A DNA stretch of 64,000 nucleotides from Eledone cirrhosa (lineage: Eukaryota), in contig OZ024740.1 of the NCBI GenBank assembly GCA_964016885.1, forward strand, positions 36,084,001 to 36,148,000, given 5' to 3'. The translations under genes were made by a program, and so were the position numbers. The notes under the pieces were generated by a model that had not been told where the DNA came from, ran no database searches, and was given only the letters and a program-made list of their open reading frames with translations. Positions 3,959 to 64,000 of the stretch are shown here, in pieces. Within the stretch, counting starts at the first letter, position 1. Each line of letters begins with the position of its first letter.

Positions 3959-3960
<2 letters not shown>

Positions 3961-4727
3961 AAATTAAGATAGATTAAATGAATTTAATCTAAATCGAAAT
4001 TGTGGGTGTCATGCCATATCGCCTGGAAATAAGCTCAAAGATAGGTCCGAGCATTTTATAATAACTAGAAATTGATTAACATATATATATACATGAATAA
4101 TCACAGGAGATAATTTTTATAAGCGTGTAACCACGCATGGCTAGTGGGTAACAAATAAATAAAGTTGACTACAACTTCAAAAATAGATACCTTTTAATAT
4201 GATTAATCTTCCCTGTATATATTCCATTAAAGAAATATATTTCACCAATTAATCAGATGGTAAGTCACGGAAAGTGGATCTTATTGGATTATCAACAAGG
4301 AAGAATAATGTCCAGCAATCCATGCTCACACAGCGAGTTCAAATCCACATCTGGCCGCTACCACGTGTTGTGTCTACACATCACAGCAGCTTCGTTTCAG
4401 TGGCGTGAATAGGTATTCGACAACTAGAAATAGCAGTCAAATTCCCTTCAACAGAAATAGCTCTACAATTAAGGAGCCGTATTTATATATCTATATCCAA
4501 AATTAAGATAAATTAAATGAATTTAATCTAAATCGAAATTGTGGGTGTCATGCCATAACGGCGTGCGCCATACATATCGCCTGGAAATAAGCTCAAAGAT
4601 AGGTCCGAGCATTTTATAATAACTAGAAATTGATTAACATATATATATATACATGAATAATCACAGGAGATAATTTTTACAAGCGTGTAACCACGCATGG
4701 CTAGTGGGTAACAAATAAATAAAGTTG
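3959..4727. mobile_element. Non-coding 539-bp unit plus a partial tandem copy, abutting (TA)n
   Basis: The unit start (3959 onward) is repeated at 4498-4727, where the second copy has a ~19-bp insertion; the unit ends AGCTCTACAATTAAGGAGC. Confidence 0.6.
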
Positions 4728-4970
4728 TTGTTTCTGAGTATGTTATTATTGTTGATGTGTGTGTTGTTGTTATTGTTGTTTGTGTCTGTGTGTCTGTTGT
4801 TGTTGGGATGTGTGTTGTATATGTGTGTGCGTATGTTGTTACTTTTGTTTTTGTTTTTGAGGCTCCAACGTAATTTTGTAAATGATTTTTCTATTTCTGA
4901 CAAACAACTAATCATATTTACCTTATTGAATGATCTAAACTTAGAAATATTATAGAACAGTGTAGCAAGA

Positions 4971-9212: not shown

Positions 9213-10440
9213 AAAGTTTTATTTAAAATTGTTGGGTTACAACAAGTAAATATTTTATAACTGATATAAAGCACTCAACAAGTTTTGGAGTAGATATACG
9301 ATATTAAACAAATGGAAACTATATTTATAAAACCATATTTATTTCATTATACATATTTCGGGGATATCATATTAAAAATATGGCATGCCTTCTTCAGATA
9401 AAATACAATATATAAACAGTTTTATAAATAATTTTGACGTACCATAAATATTGATCAACTTTTATGTAAGAAGTTGGTTTGGTAGTGAAATGTTTATAAA
9501 TATTTAGTGTTAAGCACAGTTAAAAAGAAAGACGGAGAAAAAGAAGAGATGTATGTAAAGAAAAACAGAGAGAAATAGAGAGAGATAGGGGAGAGAGAAA
9601 TAGTGAGGAGGTGAAAAAAGAGAGGCAGCTGAGGCAACAGATGAATAATAATAATTCATCATACAAATTGAGAGATTTAGGAGGGAGGGAGTACTGTACT
9701 TATTTAGTTATAGTGTTAAGGAGACGGAGAGAAATAAAAAATGAAGAGAAAACAGAGAGAGAGAGAAAGATAGAGGTGGGGGGAAAAAGAGGTAGACCAA
9801 ATAATAATAATTATTATATATGGGGAGGTGAGAGAAATAGGAGAGAAGTAAGAGAGAAAACAAGAGAGAAACTGGAGAGGTAAAGTTAAAATAACCGATA
9901 CTTAGACTTCATCACATATAAAGAGGGAGGAGAAGAAAGAACTATATCTAGAGAGAGGGATGATAGATTTACATCTTTACGTTATGTCCTATCAATTTGA
10001 ATTATCAATTCATATGAATTGGGTATTATAATGTAAATATCAATATTCATGAATGACACATAGATATATAATGTGGGAAAAATAATGACCATATGTTTAG
10101 TTTAAAATTCTGAGGTCGATGTACCAAAAACTGAGATAAAACTTCAAAAAATACGGAAATAAATAAGTATATATGTACTTTCCGGAAAAGGAAAGAAAGA
10201 GAAAAAGAGAAGGTCATCTCAAGTTCTAGTTGATACTATATACATACCCATGATCATACGTGATCAACTCTGTAATTTCTTGTTTCACAGAAAAAAAATG
10301 TTTCCCTTGTGTTATAAAAGATTTTACTATATATATATATATACATAAAAAATATATATTAATACTCCTGCCCTCACATACATGATTATCGTTCATGTAT
10401 AGAATATTATGCATATCTGTAACATATCCAGAGCTATACC

Positions 10441-10484
<44 letters not shown>

Positions 10485-10569
10485 CACACATATATGTGTA
10501 CATGGACAGATAAAGTAAGCAGATAAAATAAAATATACTCTGTAATCATTCCATATTCATATTAATACA

Positions 10570-10825
10570 TATGGCTTTTGTACAGAGACAACCAGATATT
10601 AATATATCAGCACAGAGATATCAAAACGTTAAAAATATTTTCATCACTCCCTAGAGTATCTAGGGCCGTAAAAAACACAGTATGCACCCCATATCAACCA
10701 CAGAAATCTACCCTTCCAATTTATCTGACAATATATTGCCAAGTTCATTAGAAGCAATCAGAATCAAAAAGCAAACAAAAAACCAAAAATTATTCAACAA
10801 AACTTATTTAGCAGAAATCATTTAA
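10570..10825 (+). pseudogene. Highly decayed GIY-YIG-like endonuclease remnant
   Basis: Across frames: ETTR, YQHRDIK, PHINH, SLEAIRIKK..LFNK, resembling a PLE endonuclease C-terminus. Confidence 0.35.
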
Positions 10826-11047
10826 AAGATTTAGGAGACCCTGTTGTTCTACAGATGCTCTTATATTTAGTATAGAAGTTTATCTAGCGTAAAATTTATT
10901 CAATAGATTGGGAGCATCTACATTTTAGGGTAGTTTAATTACATCATTAGTATATATTTATGAAGAAGGTTTAAAAGAAAATGTTGAAGGAATCGAAAGA
11001 TTTATCGTCAGGTTTCATACATTAATTAAATATCTTAACTAATTATA

Positions 11048-12947
11048 CTACATTTTAAATTTATATTTATATTTAAACGTTGAGTTCAATCTATGTCTGC
11101 AGCAACTGAATAAATTGCTCCTTAAATTAAGGGAATTTTTAGATTTTAATATAAAGAATATCTCCTCCACACAGAGGTCACATGTCTCAGATGAGGAATT
11201 AAAAGGAATCCCTCTTGAGACAATATTCCAAAACATCGAATACCCAACGTTATCATGTTTAAGTTGCCAGAGTAAGCCTGATAGTGAAGTTGAAGATTTC
11301 TTGTTTGGATCTGTGAAAGAATTCTTATGATTATTGTAGCGAAGTTTAAATTCTGTCGAGGTGGAACCAACATAGTTAAAAGAATTTAAGTTAGTTTTAA
11401 CATTACAATTGTATATTATATTTTTAACTAAGCAATTGTTATTTAACGGACATTTAGATTTATTTCTACAGTTACAGTTGTTTAATTGAATATTGTTTTG
11501 GCTATTATCGGTATTTTGGCTAGGTTTTAGATTCCTATTATTTATTCTGTTAATATTTTGTGCTAAATTTTTGGTGGACGAGTAAGTTAATTTTATAGTG
11601 TGTCTATTAAAAATTGAGTGATATTTATGTGTTCTAGGGAAGCGTTTGTCAAGAGCATTAAAAAATAGTTTAGCAATGTGGGTTTTAATATTTAGTGAGA
11701 AAGTGGGGGGGGGGGGCAAACCATATTATATTTCTAGTTCTATTTCTTTTCTGGCTTTTGGAATTATTGTAATGTTTTCTATTATAGTTGTTAAAGTTGT
11801 TACCGTAATTAAAATTGTTATTATTTTGGTTAGTTTGCCTATTATTATCGATGTACTTAATTTTATCACTATATCCTGCTCTAGCTAACGCTTCATTGTA
11901 ATACTGCGCTTTTTCGTCGAAAATATTTTTATTAGATGAAATTCTTGAGATACGTTCTTGAACAGAGTTCACTATAGTATTTTTAACAGATCTGGGGTGA
12001 TTAGAGTTAAAATTGACATAATTCAAGTTTTAATTTAGTTTGTGAAATGGATAGTGAAGACATGTGTTGAGATTTAGTGTTACATCTAGGAAATTGACTA
12101 TTCTATGATTATTCTCTATTTCTATTTTTTAGATTAAGGTAATTAAAAAATTGTATAATTTTTTTTCTTTTTCTATTTAGTTCAGAGTTATTATTTTCAA
12201 TAAGTAAAAGCATGTCATCACGATATAATCCTCCGGTTACACCAGGTATTTTTCTATGCAGCGAATTAATTATAAATAGGCCCACAAGGTGATCCCATAG
12301 TAATGTCGAAATTATTATCTCTATCTGCCCTAGTCCATAGTTGGTTATTAAATTCTATCAATGTTTTCCTTGCCGATAATATAATGTGCATTTCATTGCT
12401 AGTTAGGTCTGTATGTTTGAATGCGTAATTTAGTGTCTTATTCAGTAGATTAGGGGTAATAGATGAATAGTAGTTAGCAATATCTAGTTGAATAAATTTA
12501 TTATTATTGTTATATTTAATTTCTTTAAACCACTCAATAACCTCACCAGTCTCCTTCCATAAGTTTAAGTTAGGTAAATTATGTAAGTTTTTAATTTGCT
12601 GTATCACCCTGTCTAGAATGTTTTTGCTAAGTTTACCCAGGTCAGATTTTGATGGTGCAATCAATCTGTCTGGCAAATCATTTTCAAAATTTCTTTTGTG
12701 ATCTTTCATATTGATCTTGGGTTTCCTAGGCAAGAAGGGTTGTGTTTTGTTCTCAATGTCCAACTCATGCATTATACAAGATGCCTCAACATTCATTTTT
12801 TCCAGTTCGTCCTTTATCAAAGTGGAAGGCACGCCACCTGATTCTTCTTATAAAAGAGTCTGATTTTTCTATTAATTGTTTAATAAAGTCTTTGTTCTTA
12901 GGTAGAGGTATGTCTTTTAGAGAAGAAGATATCTTAAAGAATTCCAT
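11048..12947 (-). pseudogene. Disrupted PLE RT-GIY-YIG ORF (family B)
   Basis: Starts MEFFKISSSLKDIPLP..LIEKSDSFIRRIRWRAF at 12947; KDHK, DIANYYSSI, FDITMGS, GLYRDD (12214-12225), SNHP, IIWFAPP, CNCR..CPL..C, YVGST, CDLC, CCRH; several deletions and frameshifts. Confidence 0.88.
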
Positions 12948-13530
12948 TTTTTTCAGTTATAATATAAAGCGCTCAACAGTATTGGAGCAAAAATATATGC
13001 AAAAGTTTTATTTAAAATTGTTGGGTTACAACAAGTAAATATTTTATAACTGATATAAAGCACTCAACAAGTTTTGGAGTAGATATACGATATTAAACAA
13101 AAGGAAACTATATTTATAAAACCATATTTATTTCATTATACATATTTCGGGGATACCATATTAAAAATATGGCATGCCTTCTTCAGATAAAATACAATAT
13201 ATAAACAGTTTTATAAATAATGTTGACGTACCATAAATATTGATCAACTTTTATGTAAGAAGTTGGTTTGGTAGTGAAATGTTTATAAATATTTAGTGTT
13301 AAGCACAGTTAAAAAGAAAGACGGAGAAAAAGAAGAGATGTATGTAAAGAAAAACAGAGAGAAATAGAGAGAGATAGGGGAGAGAGAAATAGTGAGGAGG
13401 TGAAAAAAGAGAGGCAGCTGAGGCAACAGATGAATAATAATAATTCATCATAAAACCAACTTCTTACATAAAAGTTGATCAATATTTATGGTACGTCAAA
13501 ATTATTTATAAAACTGTTTATATATTGTAT

Positions 13531-13586
13531 TTTATCTGAAGAAGGCATGCCATATTTTTAATATGGTATCCCCGAAATATGTATAA
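13531..13586 (+). ncRNA. Hammerhead-like motif of the family B pLTR (also on the minus strand near 9346-9402 and 13135-13191)
   Basis: CTGAAGA, long stem II ATGCCATATT/AATATGGTAT, GAAA; cleavage-site register is not fully canonical. Confidence 0.5.
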
Positions 13587-13633
13587 TGAAATAAATATGG
13601 TTTTATAAATATAGTTTCCATTTGTTTACTATG

Positions 13634-14660: not shown

Positions 14661-15719
14661 ACTATATTATAATTTGAGATTAAACTCTCAGTCGTTTACA
14701 ATAAATCAGCTCCAAGAAAGGGGCATTTCCGAGCAGTTAAATACATTAATATATATGATAAACACAAAACGTGTTTGCATTGTAACAGACAAAGTTAGCT
14801 ATTAATTAAATAAACTAATTAAAGTGAATACAATTTGTCTGTCTCGATATAAGTCAATAAAGACAAGCTTATATTGGCAAAGGCCGTGATTCCTGGACAA
14901 ATCTAAATTTCAAAATCCAAACCCGCTCCGTAGATGAATTTGAACTCCGAAACCTAAATATGTTTCGCAACGATGGTACAAGAATTGAAAAATAAAGAGA
15001 ATCGAAATGGAATTGAAATAAAAAGAGAAATATTCAAATCTTCTGTGCTTATCAACAGGAACCCAGTAAAATTAGTACATTTCACCATCAAAAATTTTGC
15101 AGGTCTGACTACACGTGTGTCTAGCCAGGCCAAACTAGCCGTCCCGCATTCCCGGTGCTAGATATAACAGCCGTTTATGCGGGATTAAAGATCAGCTCTA
15201 CAGTTAAGGAGCAATATACTATATTATAATTTGAGATTAAACTCTCAGTCGTTTACAATAAATCAGCTCCAAGAAAGGGGCATTTCCGAGCAGTTAAATA
15301 CATTAATATATATGATAAACACAAAACGTGTTTGCATTGTAACAGACAAAGTTAGCTATTAATTAAATAAACTAATTAAAGTGAATACAATTTGTCTGTC
15401 TCGATATAAGTCAATAAAGACAAGCTTATATTGGCAAAGGCCGTGATTCCTGGACAAATCTAAATTTCAAAATCCAAACCCGCTCCGTAGATGAATTTGA
15501 ACTCCGAAACCTAAATATGTTTCGCAACGATGGTACAAGAATTGAAAAATAGGTTTCGGAGTTCAAATTCATCTACGGAGCGGGTTTGGATTTTGAAATT
15601 TAGATTTGTCCAGGAATCACGGCCTTTGCCAATATAAGCTTGTCTTTATTGACTTATATCGAGACAGACAAATTGTATTCACTTTAATTAGTTTATTTCA
15701 TTAATAGCTAACTTTGTCT
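14661..15719. mobile_element. Non-coding 557-bp unit with a partial tandem copy and an inverted copy, inside (TA)n
   Basis: Unit 14661-15217; exact partial repeat 15218-15551; 15551-15719 is the reverse complement of about 14786-14956; the unit ends AGCTCTACAGTTAAGGAGC. Confidence 0.7.
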
Positions 15720-24045: not shown

Positions 24046-24062
24046 TTGTCAGATTTTTATAA

Positions 24063-24308
24063 CACCACATGTGAATCATAATTAATATAGCACCAAATGT
24101 GAGTCATAATTGATATAGCACCAGATGTGAGTCATAATTGATATAGCACCAGATGTGAGTCATAATTGATATAGCACCAGATGTGAGTCATAATTGATAT
24201 AGCACCAGATGTGAGTCATAATTGATATAGCACCAGATGTGAGTCATAATTGATATAGCACCAGATGTGAGTCATAATTAATATAGCACCAGATGTGAGT
24301 CATAATTA
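24063..24308. repeat. 28-bp minisatellite, about 9 copies, containing TGAGTCA
   Basis: Unit CACCAGATGTGAGTCATAATTGATATAG. Confidence 0.95.
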
Positions 24309-24329: not shown

Positions 24330-25517
24330 TGCATCTAATTAATTAGTAAGACTTCACATCACATTCTATTTAAATGACATGTTGCATCTAATTAATTTGT
24401 AAGACTTTGCATCTAATTAATTAATAAGACTTCACATCACCTATTTTAATAACCTATTACATCTAAGTAATTAATAAGACTTCACATTACCTATTTTAAT
24501 AACCTATTACATCTAACTAATTAATAAGTCTTCCCATTACCTATTTTAATAACCTATTACATCTAACTAATTAATAAGACTTCCCATTACCTATTTTAAT
24601 AACCTATTACATCTAACTAATTAATAAACTTCACATTACCTATTTTAATAACCTATTACATCTAACTAATTAATAAGTCTTCCCATTACCTATTTTAATA
24701 ACCTATTACATCTAACTAATTAATAAGACTTCACATTACCTATTTTAATAACCTATTACATCTAACTAATTAATAAGACTTCCCATTACCTATTTTAATA
24801 ACCTATTACATCTAACTAATTAATAAGACTTCACATTACCTATTTTAATAACCTATTACATCTAACTAATTAATAAGACTTCACATTACCTATTTTAATA
24901 ACCTATTACATCTAACTAATTAATAAGACTTCCCATTACCTATTTTAATAACCTATTACATCTAACTAATTAATAAGACTTCACATTACCTATTTTAATA
25001 ACCTATTACATCTAACTAATTAATAAGACTTCACATTACCTATTTTAATAACCTATTACATCTAACTAATTAATCAGACTTCACATTACCTATTTTAATA
25101 ACCTATTACATCTAACTAATTAATAAGACTTCCCATTACCTATTTTAATAACCTATTACATCTAACTAATTAATCAGACTTCACATTACCTATTTTAATA
25201 ACCTATTACATCTAACTAATTAATAAGACTTCCCATTACCTATTTTAATAACCTATTACATCTAACTAATTAATAAGTCTTCCCATTACCTATTTTAATA
25301 ACCTATTACATCTAACTAATTAATAAGTCTTCCCATTACCTATTTTAATAACCTATTACATCTAACTAATTAATAAGACTTCACATTACCTATTTTAATA
25401 ACCTATTACATCTAACTAATTAATAAGACTTCCCATTACCTATTTTGATAACCTATTACATCTAACTAATTAATAAGTCTTCCCATTACCTATTTTAATA
25501 ACCTATTACATCTAATT
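24330..25517. repeat. 50-bp minisatellite, about 22 copies plus decayed leading copies
   Basis: Unit TAATAAGACTTCMCATTACCTATTTTAATAACCTATTACATCTAACTAAT. Confidence 0.95.
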
Positions 25518-35697: not shown

Positions 35698-35751
35698 ATG
35701 TAATTACAAACACACAGAGATACAAAAACAATTAATTGTTTCTACTTTTGA

Positions 35752-36011
35752 AACAGACAGACAGACAGACACTACCACAGTACTTTATCTAGAGAGACAG
35801 AGAGAGAGAGACACTACCACAGTACTTTATCTAGAGAGAGAGAGACACACACTACCACAGTACTTTATCTAGAGAGAGAGAGAGACAGACAGACACTGCC
35901 ACAGTACTTTATCTAGAGAGACAGAGAGAGAGACAGACACTACCACAGTACTTTATCTAGAGAGAGAGAGAGAGACAGAGAGACAGACATACACTACCAC
36001 AGTACTTTATC

Positions 36012-36050
<39 letters not shown>

Positions 36051-36450
36051 TACCACAGTACTTTAGATAGATAGAGAGAGAGAGAGACAGACACTACGAC
36101 AGTACTTTATCTAGAGGGAGACAGACAGACAGATACTACCACAGTACTTTATCTTGAGAAAGTGAGAGAGAGAGACACAGGCAGACACTACCACAGTACG
36201 TTATCTAGAGAGAGAGAGAGAGAGAGAGAGAGTTTCACTACCACCGTACTTTATCTAGAGAGAGAAGAGAGAGACAGACAATCACTACTACAGTACTTTA
36301 TCTAGAGAGAGAGAGACACAGACAGACACTACCACAGTACCTTAACTAGAGAGAGAGAGAGAGAGACACACAGACAGACACTACCACAGTACTTTATCTA
36401 GAGAAAGTGAGAGAGAGAGACACAGGCAGATACTACCACAGTACTTTATC

Positions 36451-36485
<35 letters not shown>

Positions 36486-36679
36486 ACTACCACCGTACTT
36501 TATCTAGAGAGAGAGAGAGACAGACTGACACTACCACAGTTCTTTATCTAGAGAGAGAGAGAGACAGACAGACACTACCACAGTACTTTATCTAGAGAGA
36601 AATACAGTCATACACTACCACAGTACTTTATCTAGAGAGACAGAGAGAGACAGACAGACACTACCACAGTACTTTTTCT

Positions 36680-36710
<31 letters not shown>

Positions 36711-36728
36711 TTACCACAGTACTTTATT

Positions 36729-36776
<48 letters not shown>

Positions 36777-36852
36777 CGACCACAATACTTTATCTAGAGA
36801 GAGAGAGAGAGAGAGAGACAGACATACACTACCACGGTACTTCATTTAGAGT

Positions 36853-36883
<31 letters not shown>

Positions 36884-36915
36884 TGAGAGACAAACACTAC
36901 CACAGTACTTTATCT

Positions 36916-36946
<31 letters not shown>

Positions 36947-37199
36947 GAGAGAGAGAGACAGGCAGAAACTACCACAGTACTTTATCTAGAGAGAGAGAGA
37001 GAGAGAGACACTACCACAGTACTTTATCTAGAGAGAGAGAGAGACAGACAGACACTACCACAGTACTTTATCTAGAGAGAGAGACAAACAGACACTACGA
37101 CAGTACTTTATCTGGAGAGAGAGAGAGAGAGAGACAGACAGACAATACCACAGTACATTATCTAGAGAGAGAGAGAGACACTACCGCAGTACTTTATCT

Positions 37200-37251
<52 letters not shown>

Positions 37252-37696
37252 TACCACAGTACTTTATCTAGAGAGAGAGAGAGACACACTACCACAGTAC
37301 TTTATCTAGAGAGAGAGAGAGACAGACAGACACTGCCACAGTACTTTATCTAGAGAGACAGAGAGAGAGACAGACACTACCACAGTACTTTATCTAGAGA
37401 GAGAGAGAGAGACAGAGAGACAGACATACACTACCACAGTACTTTATCTAGAGAGAGAGAGAGAGAGAGAGAGAGTTTTCACTACCACCGTACTTTATCT
37501 AGAGAGAGAAGAGAGAGACAGACAATCACTACTACAGTACTTTATCTAGAGAGAGAGAGACACAGACAGACACTACCACAGTACCTTAACTAGAGAGAGA
37601 GAGAGAGAGAGACACACAGACAGACACTACCACAGTACTTTATCTAGAGAAAGTGAGAGAGAGAGACACAGGCAGATACTACCACAGTACTTTATC

Positions 37697-37737
<41 letters not shown>

Positions 37738-37931
37738 ACTACCACCGTACTTTATCTAGAGAGAGAGAGAGACAGACTGACACTACCACAGTTCTTTATC
37801 TAGAGAGAGAGAGAGACAGACAGACACTACCACAGTACTTTATCTAGAGAGAAATACAGTCATACACTACCACAGTACTTTATCTAGAGAGACAGAGAGA
37901 GACAGACATACACTACCACAGTACTTTATCT

Positions 37932-37962
<31 letters not shown>

Positions 37963-37980
37963 TTACCACAGTACATTATT

Positions 37981-38026
<46 letters not shown>

Positions 38027-38167
38027 CGACCACAATACTTTATCTAGAGAGAGAGAGAGACAGACAGACAGACATACACTACCACGGTACTTCATTTAGA
38101 GTGAGAGAGAGAGAGGGAGAAAGAGAGAGAGAGTGAGAGACAAACACTACCACAGTACTTTATCTAA

Positions 38168-38206
<39 letters not shown>

Positions 38207-38278
38207 CTACCACAGTACTTTATCTAGAGAAGGAGAGAGAGAGACAAACAGACACTACGACAGTACTTTATCTGGAGA

Positions 38279-38313
<35 letters not shown>

Positions 38314-38355
38314 TGAGAGAGAGTGAGAGACAAACACTACCACAGTACTTTATCT

Positions 38356-38386
<31 letters not shown>

Positions 38387-38645
38387 GAGAGAGAGAGACA
38401 GGCAGAAACTACCACAGTACTTTATCTAGAGAGAGAGAGAGAGAGAGAGAGACACTACCACAGTACTTTATCTAGAGAGAGAGAGAGAGAGACAGACAGA
38501 CACTACCACAGTACTTTATCTAGAGAGAGAGACAAACAGACACTACGACAGTACTTTATCTGCAGAGAGAGAGAGAGAGAGAGACAGACAATACCACAGT
38601 ACATTATCTAGAGAGAGAGAGAGACACTACCGCAGTACTTTATCT

Positions 38646-38700
<55 letters not shown>

Positions 38701-38848
38701 CTACCACAGTATTTTATCTAGAGAAGGAGAGAGAGAGACAAACAGACACTACGACAGTACTTTATCTGGAGAGAGATAGAGAGATAGAGTGAGAGAGAGA
38801 GAGAGAGTGAGAGAGAGAGACAGACAGACACGACCACAATACTTTATC

Positions 38849-38884
<36 letters not shown>

Positions 38885-38977
38885 TACACTACCACAGTAC
38901 TTCATTTAGAGTGAGAGAGAGAGAGAGAGAGGAAAGCGAGAGAGAGTGTGAGACAAACACTACCACAGAACTTTATC

Positions 38978-39028
<51 letters not shown>

Positions 39029-39365
39029 TACCACAGTACATTATCTAGAGAGAGAGAGAGAGACAGACAGAAACGACCACAATACTTTATCTAGACAGAG
39101 AGAGAGAGTGAGAGAGAGAGAGATAGAGAGAGAGAGAGACTGACACTACCACAGTACTTTATCTATTGAGGGAGAGAGGGACACTACCACAGTACTTCAT
39201 TTAGAGTGAGAGAGAGAGACAGGCAGACACTACCACAGTACATAATCTAGAGAGTGAGACAAACTGACACTACCACAGTACTTTATCTAGAGAGAGAGAC
39301 ACTACCGCAGTACTTTATCTAAAGAGAGAGAGAGAGACAGACATACACTATCACACTACTTTATC

Positions 39366-39404
<39 letters not shown>

Positions 39405-40084
39405 ACTACCACAGTACTTTAGATAGATAGAGAGAGAGAGAGACAGAAGGACAGACACTACCACAGTACTTTATCTAAAGAGAGAGAGAGAGAGAGAGTC
39501 AGACAGACAGACACTACCACAGTACTTTATCTAGAGAGACAGAGAGAGAGAGACACTACCACAGTACTTTATCTAGAGAGAGAGAGAGACACACTACCAC
39601 AGTACTTTATCTAGAGAGAGAGAGAGAGACAGACAGACACTGCCACAGTACTTTATCTGACAGAGAGAGAGACAGACACTACAACAGTACTTTATCTAGA
39701 GAGAGAGAGAGAGAGAGACAGACATACACTACCACAGTACTTTATCTAGAGAGAGAGAGAGAGAGAGAGACACTACCACAGTACTTTAGATAGATAGAGA
39801 GAGAGAGAGACAGACACTACGACAGTACTTTATCTAGAGGGAGACAGACAGACAGATACTACCACAGTACTTTATCTAGAGAAAGTGAGAGAGAGAGACA
39901 CAGGCAGATACTACCACAGTACTTTATCTAGAGAGAGAGAGAGAGAGAGAGAGTTTCACTACCACAGTACCTTAACTAGAGAGAGAGAGAGAGGGAGACA
40001 CACAGACAGACACTACCACAGTACTTTATCTAGAGAAAGTGAGAGAGAGAGACACCAGGCAGATACTACCACAGTACTTTATCT

Positions 40085-40115
<31 letters not shown>

Positions 40116-40302
40116 TTACCACAGTACTTTATTTAGAGAGAGAGAGAGAGAGACAGACAGACACGACCACAATACTTTATCTAGAGAGAGAGAGAGAGAG
40201 AGAGACAGACATACACTACCACGGTACTTCATTTAGAGTGAGAGAGAGAGAGAGAGAAAGATAGAGAGAGTGAGAGACAAACACTACCACAGTACTTTAT
40301 CT

Positions 40303-40333
<31 letters not shown>

Positions 40334-40518
40334 GAGAGAGAGAGAGAGAGACAGGCAGAAACTACCACAGTACTTTATCTAGAGAGAGAGAGAGAGAGAG
40401 ACACTACCACAGTACTTTATCTAGAGAGAGAGAGAGAGAGACAGACAGACACTACACACTACCACAGTACTTTATCTAGAGAGAGAGACAAACAGACACT
40501 ACGACAGTACTTTATCTG

Positions 40519-40550
<32 letters not shown>

Positions 40551-40606
40551 ATACACAGTACATTATCTAGAGAGAGAGAGAGACACTACCGCAGTACTTT
40601 ATCTAA

Positions 40607-40673
<67 letters not shown>

Positions 40674-40707
40674 CAAACAGACACTACGACATTACTTTAT
40701 CTGGAGA

Positions 40708-40746
<39 letters not shown>

Positions 40747-40788
40747 TGAGAGAGAGAGACAGAACAGACACGACCACAATACTTTATC

Positions 40789-40824
<36 letters not shown>

Positions 40825-40854
40825 CATACACTACCACAGTACTTCATTTAGAGT

Positions 40855-40891
<37 letters not shown>

Positions 40892-40922
40892 TGTGAGACA
40901 AACACTACACAGAACTTTATCT

Positions 40923-40959
<37 letters not shown>

Positions 40960-41242
40960 CACTACCACAGTAAATTATCTAGAGAGAGAGAGAGAGACAG
41001 ACAGAAACGACCACAATACTTTATCTAGAGAGAGAGAGAGAGTGAGAGAGAGAGAGATAGAGAGAGAGAGAGACTGACACTACCACAGTACTTTATCTAG
41101 AGAGAGAGAGAGAGACAGACAGACACTGCCTACAGTACTTTATCTAGAGAGACAGAGAGAGAGACAGACACTACAAACAGTACTTTATCTAGAGAGAGAG
41201 AGAAAGAGAGAGGACAGACATACACTACCACAGTACTTTATC

Positions 41243-41287
<45 letters not shown>

Positions 41288-41782
41288 TACCACAGTACTT
41301 TAGATAGATAGAGAGAGAGAGAGACAGACACTACGACATTACTTTATCTAGAGGAGACAGACGGGACAGATACTACCACAGTACTTTATCTAGAGAAAGT
41401 GAGAGAGAGAGACACAGGCAGATACTACCACAGTACTTTATCTAGAGAGAGAGAGAGAGAGAGAGAGTTTCACTACCACAGTACCTTAACTAGAGAGAGA
41501 GAGGGAGACACACAGACAGACCCTACCACAGTACTTTATCTAGAGAAAGTGAGAGTGAGAGACACAGGCAGATACTACCACAGTACATTATCTAGAGAGA
41601 GAGAGAGAGACAGACTGACACTACCACATTTCTTTATCTAGAGAGAGAGAGAGAGAGACAGACAGACACTACCACAGTACTTTTATCTAGAGAGAAATAC
41701 AGTCATACACTACCACAGTACTTTATCTAGAGAGACAGAGACAGACAGACTGACATTACCACAGTACTTTATTTAGAGAGAG

Positions 41783-41832
<50 letters not shown>

Positions 41833-41851
41833 CGACCACAATACTTTATCT

Positions 41852-41882
<31 letters not shown>

Positions 41883-41980
41883 TACAACACCACGGTACTT
41901 CATTTAGAGTGAGAGAGAGAGAGAGAAAGAGAGAGAGAGTGAGAGACAAACACTACCACAGTACTTTATCTAGAGAGAGA

Positions 41981-42011
<31 letters not shown>

Positions 42012-42103
42012 TGTGAGAGAGAGAGAGAGAGACAGGCAGAAACTACCACAGTACTTTATCTAGAGAGAGAGAGAGAGGGAGACACTACCACAGTACATTA
42101 TCT

Positions 42104-42136
<33 letters not shown>

Positions 42137-42375
42137 CTACCACAGTACTTTATCTAGAGAGAGAGAGAGAGAGTGGACACTACCACAGTACTTTATCTAG
42201 AGAGAGAGAGAGAGAGACAGACAGGACACTACCACAGTACTTTATCTAGAGAGAGAGACAAACAGACACTACGACAGTACTTTATCTGGAGAGAGAGAGA
42301 GAGATGAGACAGACAGACAATACCACAGTACATTATCTAGAGAGAGAGAGAGGACACTACCGCAGTACTTTATCT

Positions 42376-42434
<59 letters not shown>

Positions 42435-42506
42435 CTACCACAGTACTTTATCTAGAGAAGGAGAGAGAGAGACAAACAGACACTACGACATTACTTTATC
42501 TGGAGA

Positions 42507-42556
<50 letters not shown>

Positions 42557-42662
42557 GAGAGAGAGACAGACAGACACGACCACAATACTTTATCTAGAGA
42601 GAGAGAGAGAGAGAGAGAGTGAGACAGACATACACTACCACAGTACTTCATTAGAGTGAGGA

Positions 42663-42696
<34 letters not shown>

Positions 42697-43108
42697 TGTG
42701 AGACAAACACTACCACAGAACTTTATCTAGAGAGAGAGAAAGAAGAGAGAGATGAGAGAGAGAGAGACACTACCACAGTACATTATCTAGAGAGAGAGAG
42801 AGAGACAGACAGAAACGATCACAATACTTTATCTAGAGAGAGAGAGAGAGTGAGAGAGAAGAGATAGAGAGAGAGAGAGACTGACACTACCACAGTACTT
42901 TATCTATTGAGGGAGAGAGGGACACTACCACAGTACTTCATTTAGAGTGAGAGAGAGAGACAGGCAGACACTACCACAGTACATAATCTAGAGAGTGAGA
43001 CAAACTGACACTACCACAGTACTTTATCTAGAGAGAGAGAGACACTACCGCAGTACTTTATCTAAAGAGAGAGAGAGAGACAGACAGACACTATCACACT
43101 ACTTTATC

Positions 43109-43178
<70 letters not shown>

Positions 43179-43654
43179 ACTACCACAGTACTTTAGATAG
43201 ATAGAGAGAGAGAGAGACAGAAGGACAGACACTACCACAGTACTTTATCTCGAGAGACAGAGAGAGAGAGACACTACCACAGTACTTTATCTAGAGAGAG
43301 AGAGAGAGACACACTACCACAGTACTTTATCTAGAGAGAGAGAGAGAGACCGACAGACACTGCCACAGTACTTTATCTAGAGAGACAGAGAGAGAGACAG
43401 ACACTACAACAGTACTTTATTAGAGAGAGTGAGAGAGAGAGAGAGACAGACATACACTACCACAGTACTTTATCTAGAGAGAGAGAGAGAGAGAGACACT
43501 ACCACAGTACTTAATAGATAGAGAGAGAGAGAGAGACAGACACTACGACAGTACTTTATCTAGAGGGAGACAGACAGACAGATACTACCACAGTACTTTA
43601 TCTAGAGAAAGTGAGAGAGACAGACACAGGCAGATACTACCACAGTACTTTATC

Positions 43655-43689
<35 letters not shown>

Positions 43690-43999
43690 ACTACCACAGT
43701 ACCTTAACTAGAGAGAGAGAGAGAGGGAGACACACAGACAGACACTACCACAGTACTTTATCTAGAGAAAGTGAGAGAGAGAGATACAGGTCAGATACTA
43801 CCACAGTACTTTATCTAGAGAGAGAGTGAGAGAGACAGACTGACACTACCACAGTTCTTTATCTAGAGAGAGAGAGAGAGACAGACAGACACTACCACAG
43901 TACTTTATCTAGAGAGAATACAGTCATTACACTACCACAGTACTTTATCTAGAGAGACAGAGACAGACAGACTGACATTACCACAGTACTTTATTTATT

Positions 44000-44036
<37 letters not shown>

Positions 44037-44055
44037 CGACCACAATACTTTATCT

Positions 44056-44088
<33 letters not shown>

Positions 44089-44116
44089 TACACTACCACG
44101 GTACTTCATTTAGAGT

Positions 44117-44147
<31 letters not shown>

Positions 44148-44168
44148 TGAGAGACAAACACTACCACA
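35752..44168. repeat. Satellite of CACTACCACAGTACTTTATCTA + variable (GA)n/GACA units, with higher-order repeats
   Basis: Direct inspection; variant markers recur at about 3.75 kb; runs into the gap. Confidence 0.95.
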
Positions 44169-44368
44169 NNNNNNNNNNNNNNNNNNNNNNNNNNNNNNNN
44201 NNNNNNNNNNNNNNNNNNNNNNNNNNNNNNNNNNNNNNNNNNNNNNNNNNNNNNNNNNNNNNNNNNNNNNNNNNNNNNNNNNNNNNNNNNNNNNNNNNNN
44301 NNNNNNNNNNNNNNNNNNNNNNNNNNNNNNNNNNNNNNNNNNNNNNNNNNNNNNNNNNNNNNNNNNNN
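44169..44368. other. Assembly gap (200 N)
   Basis: Run of N. Confidence 1.
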
Positions 44369-44388
44369 AAAGCTGCGGACCAACCCTC

Positions 44389-47300
44389 ACAAGTCTACAA
44401 TCAACCATACGATTTAAAATCGATAAAGGAAGATTCGGGCCAAACAGATAAAAAATATCAATAAAACAATACGTCAATAATTTAAATGAATGTAAAATCA
44501 TACCCGGACCCACTAGAAAGGTGTTAAATCTAGCTTCATGGGTTTCTGTAAATCCTTAGACAGTACTCTATCAGCTCACATATAAATATAAAAGCCTACT
44601 AGAATAAGTGGAATGGAGTTTACGTTGTCAACGAGTTTTATCCTGGCGGCAAAGGAGTCAACTAGCGGTGAAAAACGCACATGGCATTAGACAAGGGAGA
44701 TGACCCCTATATCCGCGAAAATAATTCGAGTGAATGTGGAAATACACATATCGAATTAGAGTGCTCAATAGACATGTTAAAATAAAACAAAAGCTATTCA
44801 TCACTCAATAGAATCGACAAAATATGAGCAATAAAATTAACTGGTGGATAGCTATGTCCAGAGCTAAATATATTAGAAAGATCGAGTATCGAAAAATCGG
44901 CGCACGAGTTAACGAAAAACGAAATCCGATATGAGCGGCAGAGGGCTCAATAATTCAGATGAATCAGAGCTATAACTATCGTTAAAATACCGTCACATAT
45001 AGAACAAGTCTACAATCAACCATACGATTTAAAATCGATAAAGGAAGATTCGGGCCAAACAGATAAAAAATATCAATAAAACAATACGTCAATAATTTAA
45101 ATGAATGTAAAATCATACCCGGACCCACTAGAAAGGTGTTAAATCTAGCTTCATGGGTTTCTGTAAATCCTTAGACAGTACTCTATCAGCTCACATATAA
45201 ATATAAAAGCCTACTAGAATAAGTGGAATGGAGTTTACGTTGTCAACGAGTTTTATCCTGGCGGCAAAGGAGTCAACTAGCGGTGAAAAACGCACATGGC
45301 ATTAGACAAGGGAGATGACCCCTATATCCGCGAAAATAATTCGAGTGAATGTGGAAATACACATATCGAATTAGAGTGCTCAATAGACATGTTAAAATAA
45401 AACAAAAGCTATTCATCACTCAATAGAATCGACAAAATATGAGCAATAAAATTAACTGGTGGATAGCTATGTCCAGAGCTAAATATATTAGAAAGATCGA
45501 GTATCGAAAAATCGGCGCACGAGTTAACGAAAAACGAAATCCGATATGAGCGGCAGAGGGCTCAATAATTCAGATGAATCAGAGCTATAACTATCGTTAA
45601 AATACCGTCACATATAGAACAAGTCTACAATCAACCATACGATTTAAAATCGATAAAGGAAGATTCGGGCCAAACAGATAAAAAATATCAATAAAACAAT
45701 ACGTCAATAATTTAAATGAATGTAAAATCATACCCGGACCCACTAGAAAGGTGTTAAATCTAGCTTCATGGGTTTCTGTAAATCCTTAGACAGTACTCTA
45801 TCAGCTCACATATAAATATAAAAGCCTACTAGAATAAGTGGAATGGAGTTTACGTTGTCAACGAGTTTTATCCTGGCGGCAAAGGAGTCAACTAGCGGTG
45901 AAAAACGCACATGGCATTAGACAAGGGAGATGACCCCTATATCCGCGAAAATAATTCGAGTGAATGTGGAAATACACATATCGAATTAGAGTGCTCAATA
46001 GACATGTTAAAATAAAACAAAAGCTATTCATCACTCAATAGAATCGACAAAATATGAGCAATAAAATTAACTGGTGGATAGCTATGTCCAGAGCTAAATA
46101 TATTAGAAAGATCGAGTATCGAAAAATCGGCGCACGAGTTAACGAAAAACGAAATCCGATATGAGCGGCAGAGGGCTCAATAATTCAGATGAATCAGAGC
46201 TATAACTATCGTTAAAATACCGTCACATATAGAACAAGTCTACAATCAACCATACGATTTAAAATCGATAAAGGAAGATTCGGGCCAAACAGATAAAAAA
46301 TATCAATAAAACAATACGTCAATAATTTAAATGAATGTAAAATCATACCCGGACCCACTAGAAAGGTGTTAAATCTAGCTTCATGGGTTTCTGTAAATCC
46401 TTAGACAGTACTCTATCAGCTCACATATAAATATAAAAGCCTACTAGAATAAGTGGAATGGAGTTTACGTTGTCAACGAGTTTTATCCTGGCGGCAAAGG
46501 AGTCAACTAGCGGTGAAAAACGCACATGGCATTAGACAAGGGAGATGACCCCTATATCCGCGAAAATAATTCGAGTGAATGTGGAAATACACATATCGAA
46601 TTAGAGTGCTCAATAGACATGTTAAAATAAAACAAAAGCTATTCATCACTCAATAGAATCGACAAAATATGAGCAATAAAATTAACTGGTGGATAGCTAT
46701 GTCCAGAGCTAAATATATTAGAAAGATCGAGTATCGAAAAATCGGCGCACGAGTTAACGAAAAACGAAATCCGATATGAGCGGCAGAGGGCTCAATAATT
46801 CAGATGAATCAGAGCTATAACTATCGTTAAAATACCGTCACATATAGAACAAGTCTACAATCAACCATACGATTTAAAATCGATAAAGGAAGATTCGGGC
46901 CAAACAGATAAAAAATATCAATAAAACAATACGTCAATAATTTAAATGAATGTAAAATCATACCCGGACCCACTAGAAAGGTGTTAAATCTAGCTTCATG
47001 GGTTTCTGTAAATCCTTAGACAGTACTCTATCAGCTCACATATAAATATAAAAGCCTACTAGAATAAGTGGAATGGAGTTTACGTTGTCAACGAGTTTTA
47101 TCCTGGCGGCAAAGGAGTCAACTAGCGGTGAAAAACGCACATGGCATTAGACAAGGGAGATGACCCCTATATCCGCGAAAATAATTCGAGTGAATGTGGA
47201 AATACACATATCGAATTAGAGTGCTCAATAGACATGTTAAAATAAAACAAAAGCTATTCATCACTCAATAGAATCGACAAAATATGAGCAATAAAATTAA

Positions 47301-48665
47301 CTGGTGGATAGCTATGTCCAGAGCTAAATATATTAGAAAGATCGAGTATCGAAAAATCGGCGCACGAGTTAACGAAAAACGAAATCCGATATGAGCGGCA
47401 GAGGGCTCAATAATTCAGATGAATCAGAGCTATAACTATCGTTAAAATACCGTCACATATAGAACAAGTCTACAATCAACCATACGATTTAAAATCGATA
47501 AAGGAAGATTCGGGCCAAACAGATAAAAAATATCAATAAAACAATACGTCAATAATTTAAATGAATGTAAAATCATACCCGGACCCACTAGAAAGGTGTT
47601 AAATCTAGCTTCATGGGTTTCTGTAAATCCTTAGACAGTACTCTATCAGCTCACATATAAATATAAAAGCCTACTAGAATAAGTGGAATGGAGTTTACGT
47701 TGTCAACGAGTTTTATCCTGGCGGCAAAGGAGTCAACTAGCGGTGAAAAACGCACATGGCATTAGACAAGGGAGATGACCCCTATATCCGCGAAAATAAT
47801 TCGAGTGAATGTGGAAATACACATATCGAATTAGAGTGCTCAATAGACATGTTAAAATAAAACAAAAGCTATTCATCACTCAATAGAATCGACAAAATAT
47901 GAGCAATAAAATTAACTGGTGGATAGCTATGTCCAGAGCTAAATATATTAGAAAGATCGAGTATCGAAAAATCGGCGCACGAGTTAACGAAAAACGAAAT
48001 CCGATATGAGCGGCAGAGGGCTCAATAATTCAGATGAATCAGAGCTATAACTATCGTTAAAATACCGTCACATATAGAACAAGTCTACAATCAACCATAC
48101 GATTTAAAATCGATAAAGGAAGATTCGGGCCAAACAGATAAAAAATATCAATAAAACAATACGTCATAATTTAAATGAATGTAAAATCATACCCGGACCC
48201 ACTAGAAAGGTGTTAAATCTAGCTTCATGGGTTTCTGTAAATCCTTAGACAGTACTCTATCAGCTCACATATAAATATAAAAGCCTACTAGAATAAGTGG
48301 AATGGAGTTTACGTTGTCAACGAGTTTTATCCTGGCGGCAAAGGAGTCAACTAGCGGTGAAAAACGCACATGGCATTAGACAAGGGAGATGACCCCTATA
48401 TCCGCGAAAATAATTCGAGTGAATGTGGAAATACACATATCGAATTAGAGTGCTCAATAGACATGTTAAAATAAAACAAAAGCTATTCATCACTCAATAG
48501 AATCGACAAAATATGAGCAATAAAATTAACTGGTGGATAGCTATGTCCAGAGCTAAATATATTAGAAAGATCGAGTATCGAAAAATCGGCGCACGAGTTA
48601 ACGAAAAACGAAATCCGATATGAGCGGCAGAGGGCTCAATAATTCAGATGAATCAGAGCTATAAC

Positions 48666-48668
<3 letters not shown>
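44389..48668. repeat. Tandem array of about 7 near-identical 615-bp non-coding units
   Basis: AAGTCTACAATCAACC at 44391, 45006, 45621, 46236, 46851, 47466 and 48081; only a 1-nt deletion noticed, in the last unit. Confidence 0.97.
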
Positions 48669-52572
<3,904 letters not shown>

Positions 52573-52709
52573 AGTGTAATTTTCTACACAAAACGAAGGT
52601 TATAGAGAAAATTGGGGTTGGTAATGGCACATGGAATATCTAAGAGACAGAATACTTTTTTGTGAAAAAACATAATTTTTATAAGGTAAGGAAATAATAA
52701 AGGGTATAA

Positions 52710-52757
52710 AAAATGACCGGTTTCGATGGGTCTGCAAAAGCCATCTTTTCAAATGTT
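52710..52757 (-). ncRNA. Hammerhead motif with U3-A8 core variant
   Basis: Minus strand: AACAT-TTGAAAA-GATGG..CCATC-GAAACCGGT-C-ATTTT. Confidence 0.6.
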
Positions 52758-52987
52758 GATTAATATTAAGAAAAATTAATAATACGAAGAGTTAAAATTT
52801 GAGACTTGAAAATTCAAGTATAAAATTCATTGTGGGATTTCATAGCAGTTTTCATCTAGGTAGCAACAACAGGTTGACTGCTGTGTCCCTTTCTGGTAGT
52901 GAATGAGAAGTTATTTGGGGTGTGGGTTATTTTATAAAGGTCAGATTTAGCAATAGCCAGCTGCTGGTCAGTGAGGGGGTGGAAGCA

Positions 52988-53148
52988 ATATACACACACA
53001 TACCTTCATCCACACATACACACACATACATATATATATATATTATATATATATATATACATATACACACATACATACACACAGACATACATATACATAC
53101 ACACATACACACACACACACATATATATACACATACACACACACACAC

Positions 53149-53190
<42 letters not shown>

Positions 53191-53221
53191 TATATATACA
53201 TACACATACATCCAGATACAC

Positions 53222-53319
<98 letters not shown>

Positions 53320-53445
53320 CACCCACACATACATACACACATATATATATATACATACACACATACAAACATACACACACACACACACACACATATATAT
53401 ACACACATACACACACATATATATATACACACATATATATATATT

Positions 53446-53490
<45 letters not shown>

Positions 53491-53501
53491 CATATATATA
53501 C

Positions 53502-53559
<58 letters not shown>

Positions 53560-53596
53560 TATACATACATATATATATATATACATATATATATAT
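52988..53596. repeat. (CA/TA)n simple-sequence tract
   Basis: Direct inspection. Confidence 0.9.
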
Positions 53597-53712
53597 GGCG
53601 TGTAACTGAGTGGTTAGCGAATTGGATTCACAATGTTGAGGTTGTGAGTTCGATTCCTGGACCGGGCGATGCGTTATGTCCTTGAGCAAGACACTTTATT
53701 TCACGTTGCTCC
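53597..53712 (+). mobile_element. tRNA-CORE SINE, 5' half
   Basis: A box TAACTGAGTGG, B box GTTCGATTCC, CORE-like GTCCTTGAGCAAGACACTTTATTTCACGTTGCTCC. Confidence 0.8.
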
Positions 53713-53811
53713 TTCTACCTGGAGTTGCGACCGATAGATAGTACTAGCAACTGGAAAGACCAACGGAAACATTGTTCCCTCGGTCCGATTTGACGAAAGT
53801 CGATCGATCCT

Positions 53812-62614
<8,803 letters not shown>

Positions 62615-62834
62615 GCCTGCCCGCCCAGCCAGTGGGATGGTGTTATCTTATGCCTAAAACAGCACGACGTGCTGTGGCCAACGGCGCCGATTGGCGCGCG
62701 ACAGACTGGTCGGTCAAGGTGATCAAGGTGATATATATATATATGTATATATATAACCCTATCAGCTGGTATATATATAACCCTATCAGCTGGTATATAC
62801 AACCTTATCAGCTGGTATATATAGCCATATCAGC

Positions 62835-62871
<37 letters not shown>

Positions 62872-62877
62872 TATCAG

Positions 62878-62916
<39 letters not shown>

Positions 62917-62917
<1 letters not shown>

Positions 62918-63606
62918 TAAAACCTGTCTATAGAATCAATCAGATATTAAAATATATACTATTTCTTCTTCTAGTCAGCATAATTAACCATATACATAAT
63001 CAAATCCAGCAAGCTTTAAGAGTAAATTTTCTAACGGGGAAATCTCCGACAAACAATTGATCGCAGCTAGTTCGCGTTAACTCCGTTCCATTATTTATCA
63101 AACACTTCGGCAGCATGCAGAATCCGATCAAATATATCGTCAACCGCACGTAATTAGTAGTAAAATTAAACTTAGAAGAAATACGCACATACCGTAATTA
63201 TATCTCTACCATGGTTTCTTCCTTGTTTAGGACATCCAAATAATATGGACTTGCCCAGAGTCAGGTTATCATCAGGAGATAAACTCAGAAATAGACATTT
63301 AATTTCTCAGACCGACCCCGCCAAATTTAGATTCAAAAATGGCTAAGATCGCTATGTAGCTGTGTACCAGCCAGAGAGAAAGAGTGTGATTGGTCGCTTA
63401 CGGCGGGTAGGCATGCTGCTAGAAAGCGCAGCCATATATCGCCAAATTTAATCTCAACCGATAGGGAGATTATTAAATATAGAGGTTATCACATACATAA
63501 AATTAAATTAAATTAAATCAAGGATACATATATGTGTTGCAACTGTTCACTTTTAAGCTCAATGAAGAATTAATAAGTTAAAATCAATAAATCAGAGCAT
63601 TATATC
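62917..63606. other. About 690-bp non-coding insert in (TA)n, possibly related to the 539/557/615-bp units
   Basis: GCTAGAAAGCGCAGCC block and terminal GCTCAAT..ATCAGAGC; A-rich plus strand; TA-flanked. Confidence 0.4.
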
Positions 63607-63619
63607 ATAATAACCTCTC

Positions 63620-64000
<381 letters not shown>

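Follow-up and report, generated by a model that had tools for sequence, protein, structure and literature searches.

The window analyzed here, a 64,000-nt stretch of the Eledone cirrhosa genome, contains a head-to-tail array of almost identical units beside a (TA)n tract, which raises the question of how such a series arose and from what template. We favor, with a probability of about 0.6, a reading in which the array is an insertion of a non-coding element copied by a Neptune-type reverse transcriptase (RT) that re-read a monomer-length, probably circular RNA.

The array and its surroundings

The array comprised 6.96 units with a period of 615 bp, of which six were identical and the seventh, with one A deleted, was cut at unit base 591, in keeping with the near-identity described in an earlier note made from the sequence alone. 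The units had also been called non-coding, CpG-retaining, and A-rich on the plus strand, and all three descriptions held: the longest open reading frame (ORF) in the array was at most 62 amino acids, 26 CpG were counted by eye in the unit where ~20 were expected, and the 615 bp consisted of 250 A, 145 T, and 220 G or C (i.e., less than 50% GC). The features of the array and its borders were as follows:

44389..48668, minus strand: array of 6.96 units; the strand is that of the inferred RNA sense; probably represents only the distal portion of a longer insertion
44868..45482, minus strand: one unit in its natural phase; 44868 (+615n) is the fixed end of the family and the putative start of reverse transcription
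44945..44970, minus strand: GCTC..GAGC hairpin of every unit, located 77-102 nt from the fixed end; motif type as in Neptune-type elements
44850..44865, minus strand: weak AGCT..AGCT stem just past the unit junction, at the site of the second RCTC..GAGY hairpin in Neptune elements and in the 539- and 557-bp units
45116..45164, minus strand: conserved motif RCAGAAACCC..GGGUCCGGGUA, a candidate RNA processing site with a predicted cut at 45122/45121
48669..49890, no strand: (TA)n/(TATG)n tract bordering the array on its distal side, where ends vary
44369..44388, minus strand: 20 bp matching a LINE-like RT gene (sequence match)
44169..44368, no strand: 200-N assembly gap, preceded by a ~44-bp AG-rich satellite

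Both ends that had previously been ascribed to the element required revision. The left end had been regarded as the element's own, but all 20 of the other arrays located by BLAST start elsewhere, and the 20 bp in question, found also in two copies of a LINE-like RT gene, are a LINE piece following the 200-N gap. The GCTC..GAGC hairpin, present at 44945+615n and for the last time at 48634 before the (TA)n, had been taken for the right end; distal ends, however, fall throughout the unit, that in the window being one among several TA-like stop sites, and it is with the opposite, fixed end that the hairpin is associated.

A further array of the same haplotype has a proper fixed end and comprises 16.4 units before it breaks off at a 200-N gap ~104 kb upstream, and this gap adjoins the same AG-rich satellite as the window gap, in mirror orientation. 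In the window, the satellite extends over ~35700-44168 and consists of CACTACCACAGTACTTTATCT plus variable (AG)n. The contig between the two 200-N gaps (C1 36,023,743-36,128,168; L093; window 1-44168) looks inverted in the scaffold because satellite and array ends match only when it is flipped. With the contig flipped, the satellite ends meet each other, as do the array ends, so that the window array is likely the far seven units of an insertion of 23 or more units, perhaps interrupted by a LINE. Since the array touches a gap and the neighboring contig looks inverted, its copy number is uncertain. Other repeats in the window included minisatellites at 2001-2663 (19 bp), 24058-24307 (28 bp), and 24410-25515 (50 bp), as well as a 5′-truncated LINE between TA tracts (55320-58050) that ends in (TGA)n and that we take, by its look, to be RTE-like.

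A dispersed family with one fixed end

When the 3.0-Gb assembly was searched by BLAST with the unit, 21 array loci were recovered from ten contigs. Besides that in the window, all 20 arrays had a single start site, at the base corresponding to window phase 44868 and directly after TA-type repeats, and their distal ends varied in position. Because most of the loci sampled thereafter were picked via the fixed end or the youngest subfamily, only these 20 test the fixed end without bias. The search for dispersed monomers and multimers that the earlier note had proposed yielded, by exact-pattern counts, at least 742 fixed ends and 1422 internal junctions (controls 0), with one junction phase and (TA)n flanks; the youngest subfamily had 100 fixed ends. 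The concern that the unit might occur only at this locus, or only in large satellite blocks, is thereby removed.

Insertions ranged from 0.1 to more than 25 units in length. Among 94 ends sampled on chromosome 1, 34 belonged to insertions of less than one unit, 26 to those of 1-2, 21 of 2-5, 3 of 5-10, and 10 of at least 10 units. Copies were 88-100% identical to the window unit, while sister families had ~70-85% identity and units of ~600-630 bp, the 629-bp sister family being known from partial units. Retrieved sequence closed 178 of the 184 sampled insertions, and a TA run was present at the far end of 110 of these 178. An inverted arm was seen in one insertion of the 184 (L038), which extended 1.5 units from the fixed end and then 1.4 units in inverted orientation, joined through 3-nt microhomology. 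Additionally, members directly adjoined other TA-targeting elements in L106 and in L041 (beyond 7533, reverse strand), which suggests nested insertion of such elements at each other's TA-like ends.

The unit junction and TA end were also present in contigs of other public runs, and 60 young arrays carried 25 haplotypes, 20 of them seen once and one common to 21 arrays. The family is thus a real, young, mobile, dispersed non-coding element with one fixed end in (TA)n. An assembly artefact or ordinary satellite could be suspected from the gap and the seemingly inverted contig beside the window array, but is extremely improbable given the number of dispersed ends, the closure of nearly all sampled insertions, the locus-specific haplotypes, and the recurrence of the junction in independent runs. 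Rather than the few large blocks with arbitrary ends of a satellite, the family has dispersed insertions with one fixed and one variable end, and the earlier dismissal of an old satellite is supported.

Copying errors and the nature of the template

Variation within arrays was interpreted as in Roll-Seq, where changes in the template appear in all copies and RT errors in one (PMC11331410). In 86 arrays of at least two units (367 kb), we found 101 singleton and 20 recurrent events. The singleton rate of young arrays, 1.7e-4, was near the in vitro RT substitution rates of 0.6-2.2e-4 (PMC11331410), and singletons had a strand bias, with 20 A>G versus 3 T>C (p=0.017). Moreover, 14 variants were each confined, among the sampled arrays, to a single one with three or more units and were present in every unit there, which requires a monomer bottleneck followed by re-expansion. 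This bears on the possibility that the RT copies read-through transcripts of tandem arrays a single time, beginning internally, and that unequal exchange or gene conversion homogenizes or lengthens the arrays. Internal initiation and a multi-copy mRNA have been proposed from in vitro data (PMC11167929), and the haplotype common to 21 of the 60 young arrays is compatible with it; single-pass copying, however, cannot place a new variant in all 10-22 units of one array, and we consider it quite unlikely.

The re-reading of one template is further indicated by mixed read-outs of the same site. The units of L046 read C,C,C,C,A,C,C,C,A+G,A,C,A,A, those of L031 T,G,A,A, of L184 T,A,A+G,A, of L179 del,A,A,del, and of L170 T,A,A; L180 was likewise mixed, and in L097 nineteen T (reference) units were followed by A,T,A,A,A,A. 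A second allele, or an error no more than 2 nt away, was present at 5 of 19 recurrent sites, against ~0.16 expected (6 of 20 before one homopolymer case was dropped). Changes from T or C to A made up 7 of 13 recurrent substitutions versus 7 of 82 singletons (p=3e-4 after exclusion of a complex indel that covered two sites), at sites that differed between arrays and were each opposite a minus-strand purine. All six polarized cases of this kind lay toward the far end, and the pattern was seen again in newly sampled loci; counter-cases to distal polarity were L064 and L071-612 (proximal) and L124 (mixed). Four within-array alleles occurred in two arrays each, on different backgrounds; rare alleles of this type were read from the assembly, such that assembly error is possible. 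Under single-pass read-through, blocks like ...GG or CC.. could be local duplications, but duplication copies one allele and yields neither three read-outs per site, the T/C-to-A bias, nor distal polarity. Abasic or m1A sites are known to cause mixed misincorporation and deletion during reverse transcription (PMC9958784). Collectively, the patterns suggest that in such arrays a single damaged molecule was copied over and over, beginning at the fixed end. A literature search (few subscription journals; without Repbase or Dfam) returned neither a description of the 615-bp family nor one of re-read damage in genomic arrays.

Rolling-circle DNA transposition also yields a fixed start, a variable stop, and multimers, and A is typically inserted opposite damaged purines in abasic DNA. 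Both the form of the family and its T/C-to-A changes would therefore fit a single-stranded DNA circle that arose by rolling-circle replication (Helitron/Replitron-like or eccDNA) and was inserted at TA. A signature of A-to-I editing did not reach significance (5 T>C versus 3 A>G sites, p=0.15) and so does not favor RNA over single-stranded DNA. Against such a DNA circle, the hairpin placement, target, and tandem-plus-fold-back form are common to RT-encoding Neptune elements, and array ends lacked the TC..CTRR that, with a terminal hairpin, characterizes Helitron ends; we regard it as improbable, below single-pass read-through. The recent rolling-circle multimer of the earlier note is supported by dispersal, fixed end, within-array homogeneity, and error patterns, while an RNA rather than DNA template and its covalent circularity are what we infer.

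Links to Neptune-type elements and a candidate processing site

The window itself contains a likely helper type and two related non-coding units:

9213..13627, minus strand: broken Neptune-type Penelope-like element, with a 3789-bp unit, 454 bp of a second, and a fold-back; shows the likely type of helper
9356-9397, minus strand: hammerhead core of this element (minimal core)
9273-9291 and 12971-12988, minus strand: its RCTC..GAGY hairpins, near both unit ends
14662..15718, minus strand: 557-bp non-coding unit, 1.6 copies plus fold-back, with both hairpins and without the hammerhead core
3960..4727, minus strand: 539-bp non-coding unit, 1.4 copies, with both hairpins and without the hammerhead core

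The Neptune-type element encodes an RT, a CNCRNKSKCPLNNNC linker, and a GIY-YIG-like end on the minus strand, and shares the form of the 615-bp insertions, with its fixed (TA)n end at 9213. It was classed as Neptune because the linker motif is as in PMC8557442; Pfam recognized none of the three pieces. A second Neptune-type family (L051), with 46-71% protein identity, also had a hammerhead core and hairpins near both unit ends. In both families (window 9213-13002; L051), one hairpin lies 57-63 nt before the (TA)n and the other at the unit start. The 615-, 557-, and 539-bp units kept the 3′ hairpin and lacked the hammerhead, so the stems that the earlier note had seen on other units were recovered for the 539- and 557-bp units, whereas a ~690-bp unit was absent from window self-matches. 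The 557-bp unit had 16 exact junctions, none in series, and hence no long multimers.

Paired RCTC..GAGY sequences preceded (AT)n in 152 of 1598 windows compared to 206 of 12503 background windows, a roughly six-fold enrichment among family copies that are not independent. A non-pairing control was not enriched (31 of 1598), and a smaller, underpowered test on 38 windows showed no enrichment of the hairpin. Its placement, shared with Neptune-type elements, implies that the RNA corresponds to the minus strand of the window. The Penelope link rests on architecture and this short hairpin, and among 31 Penelope 3′ regions in sampled loci there was no coding element sharing the end sequence of the 615-bp unit. 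Neptune-type Penelope elements, which the earlier note had not named, are the likely helper. Naiad was rejected for this role, as inspection by eye of two Naiad consensus sequences from Octopus revealed neither the unit's end nor its hairpin in their final ~600 nt.

Other Penelope-like sequences were observed as well. A second family in the window (49892-51530, 59406-60987, and 4934-7130) had RT then GIY-YIG, and hammerhead cores like CTGACGA..GAAA. Its first two copies, 9514 bp apart, were 99.7% identical with near-identical TA tracts before both, possibly reflecting a local duplication or assembly repeat. Three Neptune unit junctions ~1.05 kb apart at C4 319,064,651-319,066,799 probably reflect a trimer formed by a Neptune element with an internal deletion. 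Flanks of L031-L213 contained ~50 hairpin types ending 40-90 nt before (TA)n, in several families with hammerheads and in others without.

The positions at which arrays stop are also pertinent to the template. Ends at the unit junction were as rare as in most bins (4 of 160; hazard 0.022), while unit positions 231-254 received 17 of the 64 first-round ends, 5 of the 32 second-round ends, and 5 of the 82 from later rounds, where a uniform spread predicts 3.9%. These stops fall directly before the RCAGAAACCC..GGGUCCGGGUA motif, which is kept across three diverged families. They fit run-off at a linear 5′ end with circles reading through; alternatively, they could represent a short sub-lineage truncated there. 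The same element and helper might instead employ a linear RNA slightly longer than one unit, with strand transfer between redundant ends and no covalent circle. Such transfer would account equally well for array-wide private variants and re-read damage, would require neither ribozyme nor ligase, and would make the surplus first-round stops the apparent linear 5′ end. However, stops at 231-254 were near background in later rounds (~3 of the 82 expected if uniform), and more than 20 consecutive transfers would need to be scarless; we consider this route unlikely, albeit less so than the other alternatives, and favor a covalent RNA circle as the template with moderate confidence. Good confidence attaches to the broader statement, covering both the circle and strand-transfer forms, that the family is a retroelement that is non-autonomous and depends on Neptune, and that its arrays arose as one template was read again and again.

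Within the conserved motif, ACCC can pair with GGGU around an inner stem, and the pairs are nearly invariant (compensatory change in 0 of 6). It resembles one half of a hammerhead, GAAA-stem III-GUC, but CUGANGA is missing. By eye, no hammerhead, hairpin, or HDV register fits the CAGAAACCC motif. The conserved CAGAAACCC..GGGUCC, beside which the first-round stops cluster, is a candidate RNA processing site. CUGANGA..GAAA with stem II was absent from the 615-bp unit, and none of the hammerhead core variants listed in PMC4209133 was seen. Across 206 segments there was one loose hammerhead match, in a copy of a sister family (L240-L269) with a conserved CUGAUGA half-core, after which come a stem and, in most copies, GAGA in place of GAAA. 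A relic hammerhead at this CUGAUGA was rejected, since the sequence (24 of 26 copies) lacks GAAA and fitting stems. Rfam returned only microsatellite noise for 44300-64000 and no match for the unit and three sister loci; in a control it also missed the minimal Neptune hammerhead, which makes this negative weak. Back-splicing was discarded for want of a YAG|GTR site on the minus strand, and no cis ribozyme that would explain circle formation was found in the unit. Folding z-scores were -2.8 (linear) and -3.1 (circular) for the minus strand and -0.9 and -1.4 for the plus strand, which is suggestive only.

Proposed mechanism and known systems

We propose that the minus strand of the unit would be transcribed and the RNA cut near the CAGAAACCC..GGGUCC motif and then closed. 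A Neptune-type RT may bind the RCTC..GAGY hairpin region, prime at a cut in (TA)n, begin at the fixed point, and synthesize the plus strand. The monomer-length, probably circular RNA would be re-read many times, with linear RNAs running off ~250 nt in and circles yielding 2 to more than 25 units, before the far end joins TA-like sequence. A bolder and tentative extension, which we think possible rather than probable, is that Neptune retrotransposons are parasitized by a clade of circular RNAs lacking hammerheads, whose cutting and closure occur at an undescribed ribozyme or processing motif (RCAGAAACCC..GGGUC/CGGGUA), and that the arrays are single-molecule germ-line records of rolling-circle reverse transcription, including template damage during copying.

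Rolling-circle reverse transcription has been proposed for retrozymes. For Penelope elements, an opposing model of linear multi-copy mRNA was put forward by the authors of in vitro work on the Penelope RT Poseidon, which starts internally and does not need hammerhead cleavage (PMC11167929); in vivo proof is absent from the literature found. The 615-bp arrays provide sequence evidence for the re-reading of one template, and point to the strand, start site, and predicted RNA junction. Circle formation without a hammerhead would imply some other RNA-cutting activity, and elements of this sort would escape hammerhead-based searches. The shared RCTC..GAGY hairpin, in turn, may be the signal that Neptune proteins recognize.

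A type I hammerhead is the defining feature of retrozymes, which reach 62-mers and for which a circRNA template and a Penelope helper have been proposed (PMC7229834; bioRxiv 10.64898/2026.07.22.740005). Like the 615-bp family, animal non-LTR retrozymes are non-coding, low in GC, and dispersed as dimers to long multimers, but they have the type I hammerhead and units of 150-450 bp, whereas the 615-bp family lacks the core, its circRNA is putative, and by definition it is not a retrozyme. Chlamydomonas has non-autonomous elements that are multicopy and lack hammerheads (PMC8557442). Among them, Chlamys MRC1 is likewise non-autonomous, head-to-tail multicopy, and targeted to microsatellites, in a mostly hammerhead-free clade; it differs in belonging to green algae and in having N-terminal-EN helpers, (C)n/(CA)n targets, and 3′ similarity to the helper (PMC8557442), while the 615-bp family is animal, targets (TA)n, and has only the hairpin in common with Neptune-type elements. 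An active Chlamys pair has been described (PMC9977147). The Neptune clade shares the (TA)n target, fixed 3′ side, 5′ truncation, and partial tandems (PMC8557442), and Neptune copies of the same genome share the RCTC..GAGY hairpins; in contrast to Neptune, the 615-bp family has no ORF or hammerhead, forms far longer multimers, and rarely has inverted arms. Octopus Naiad, too, has a (TA)n target and no canonical hammerhead (PMC8557442), and differs in end and hairpin. Penelope-like elements may further be marked by inverted 5′ copies and a 30-40 bp tail, pointing to two start sites; in the 615-bp family, one of 184 insertions had an inverted arm and the 20 BLAST-located arrays had one start site. 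With a fixed 3′ side, variable 5′ truncation, partial and multiple tandems, and a microsatellite target, as in non-autonomous Penelope-like elements, the 615-bp family is most likely a form of this known kind.
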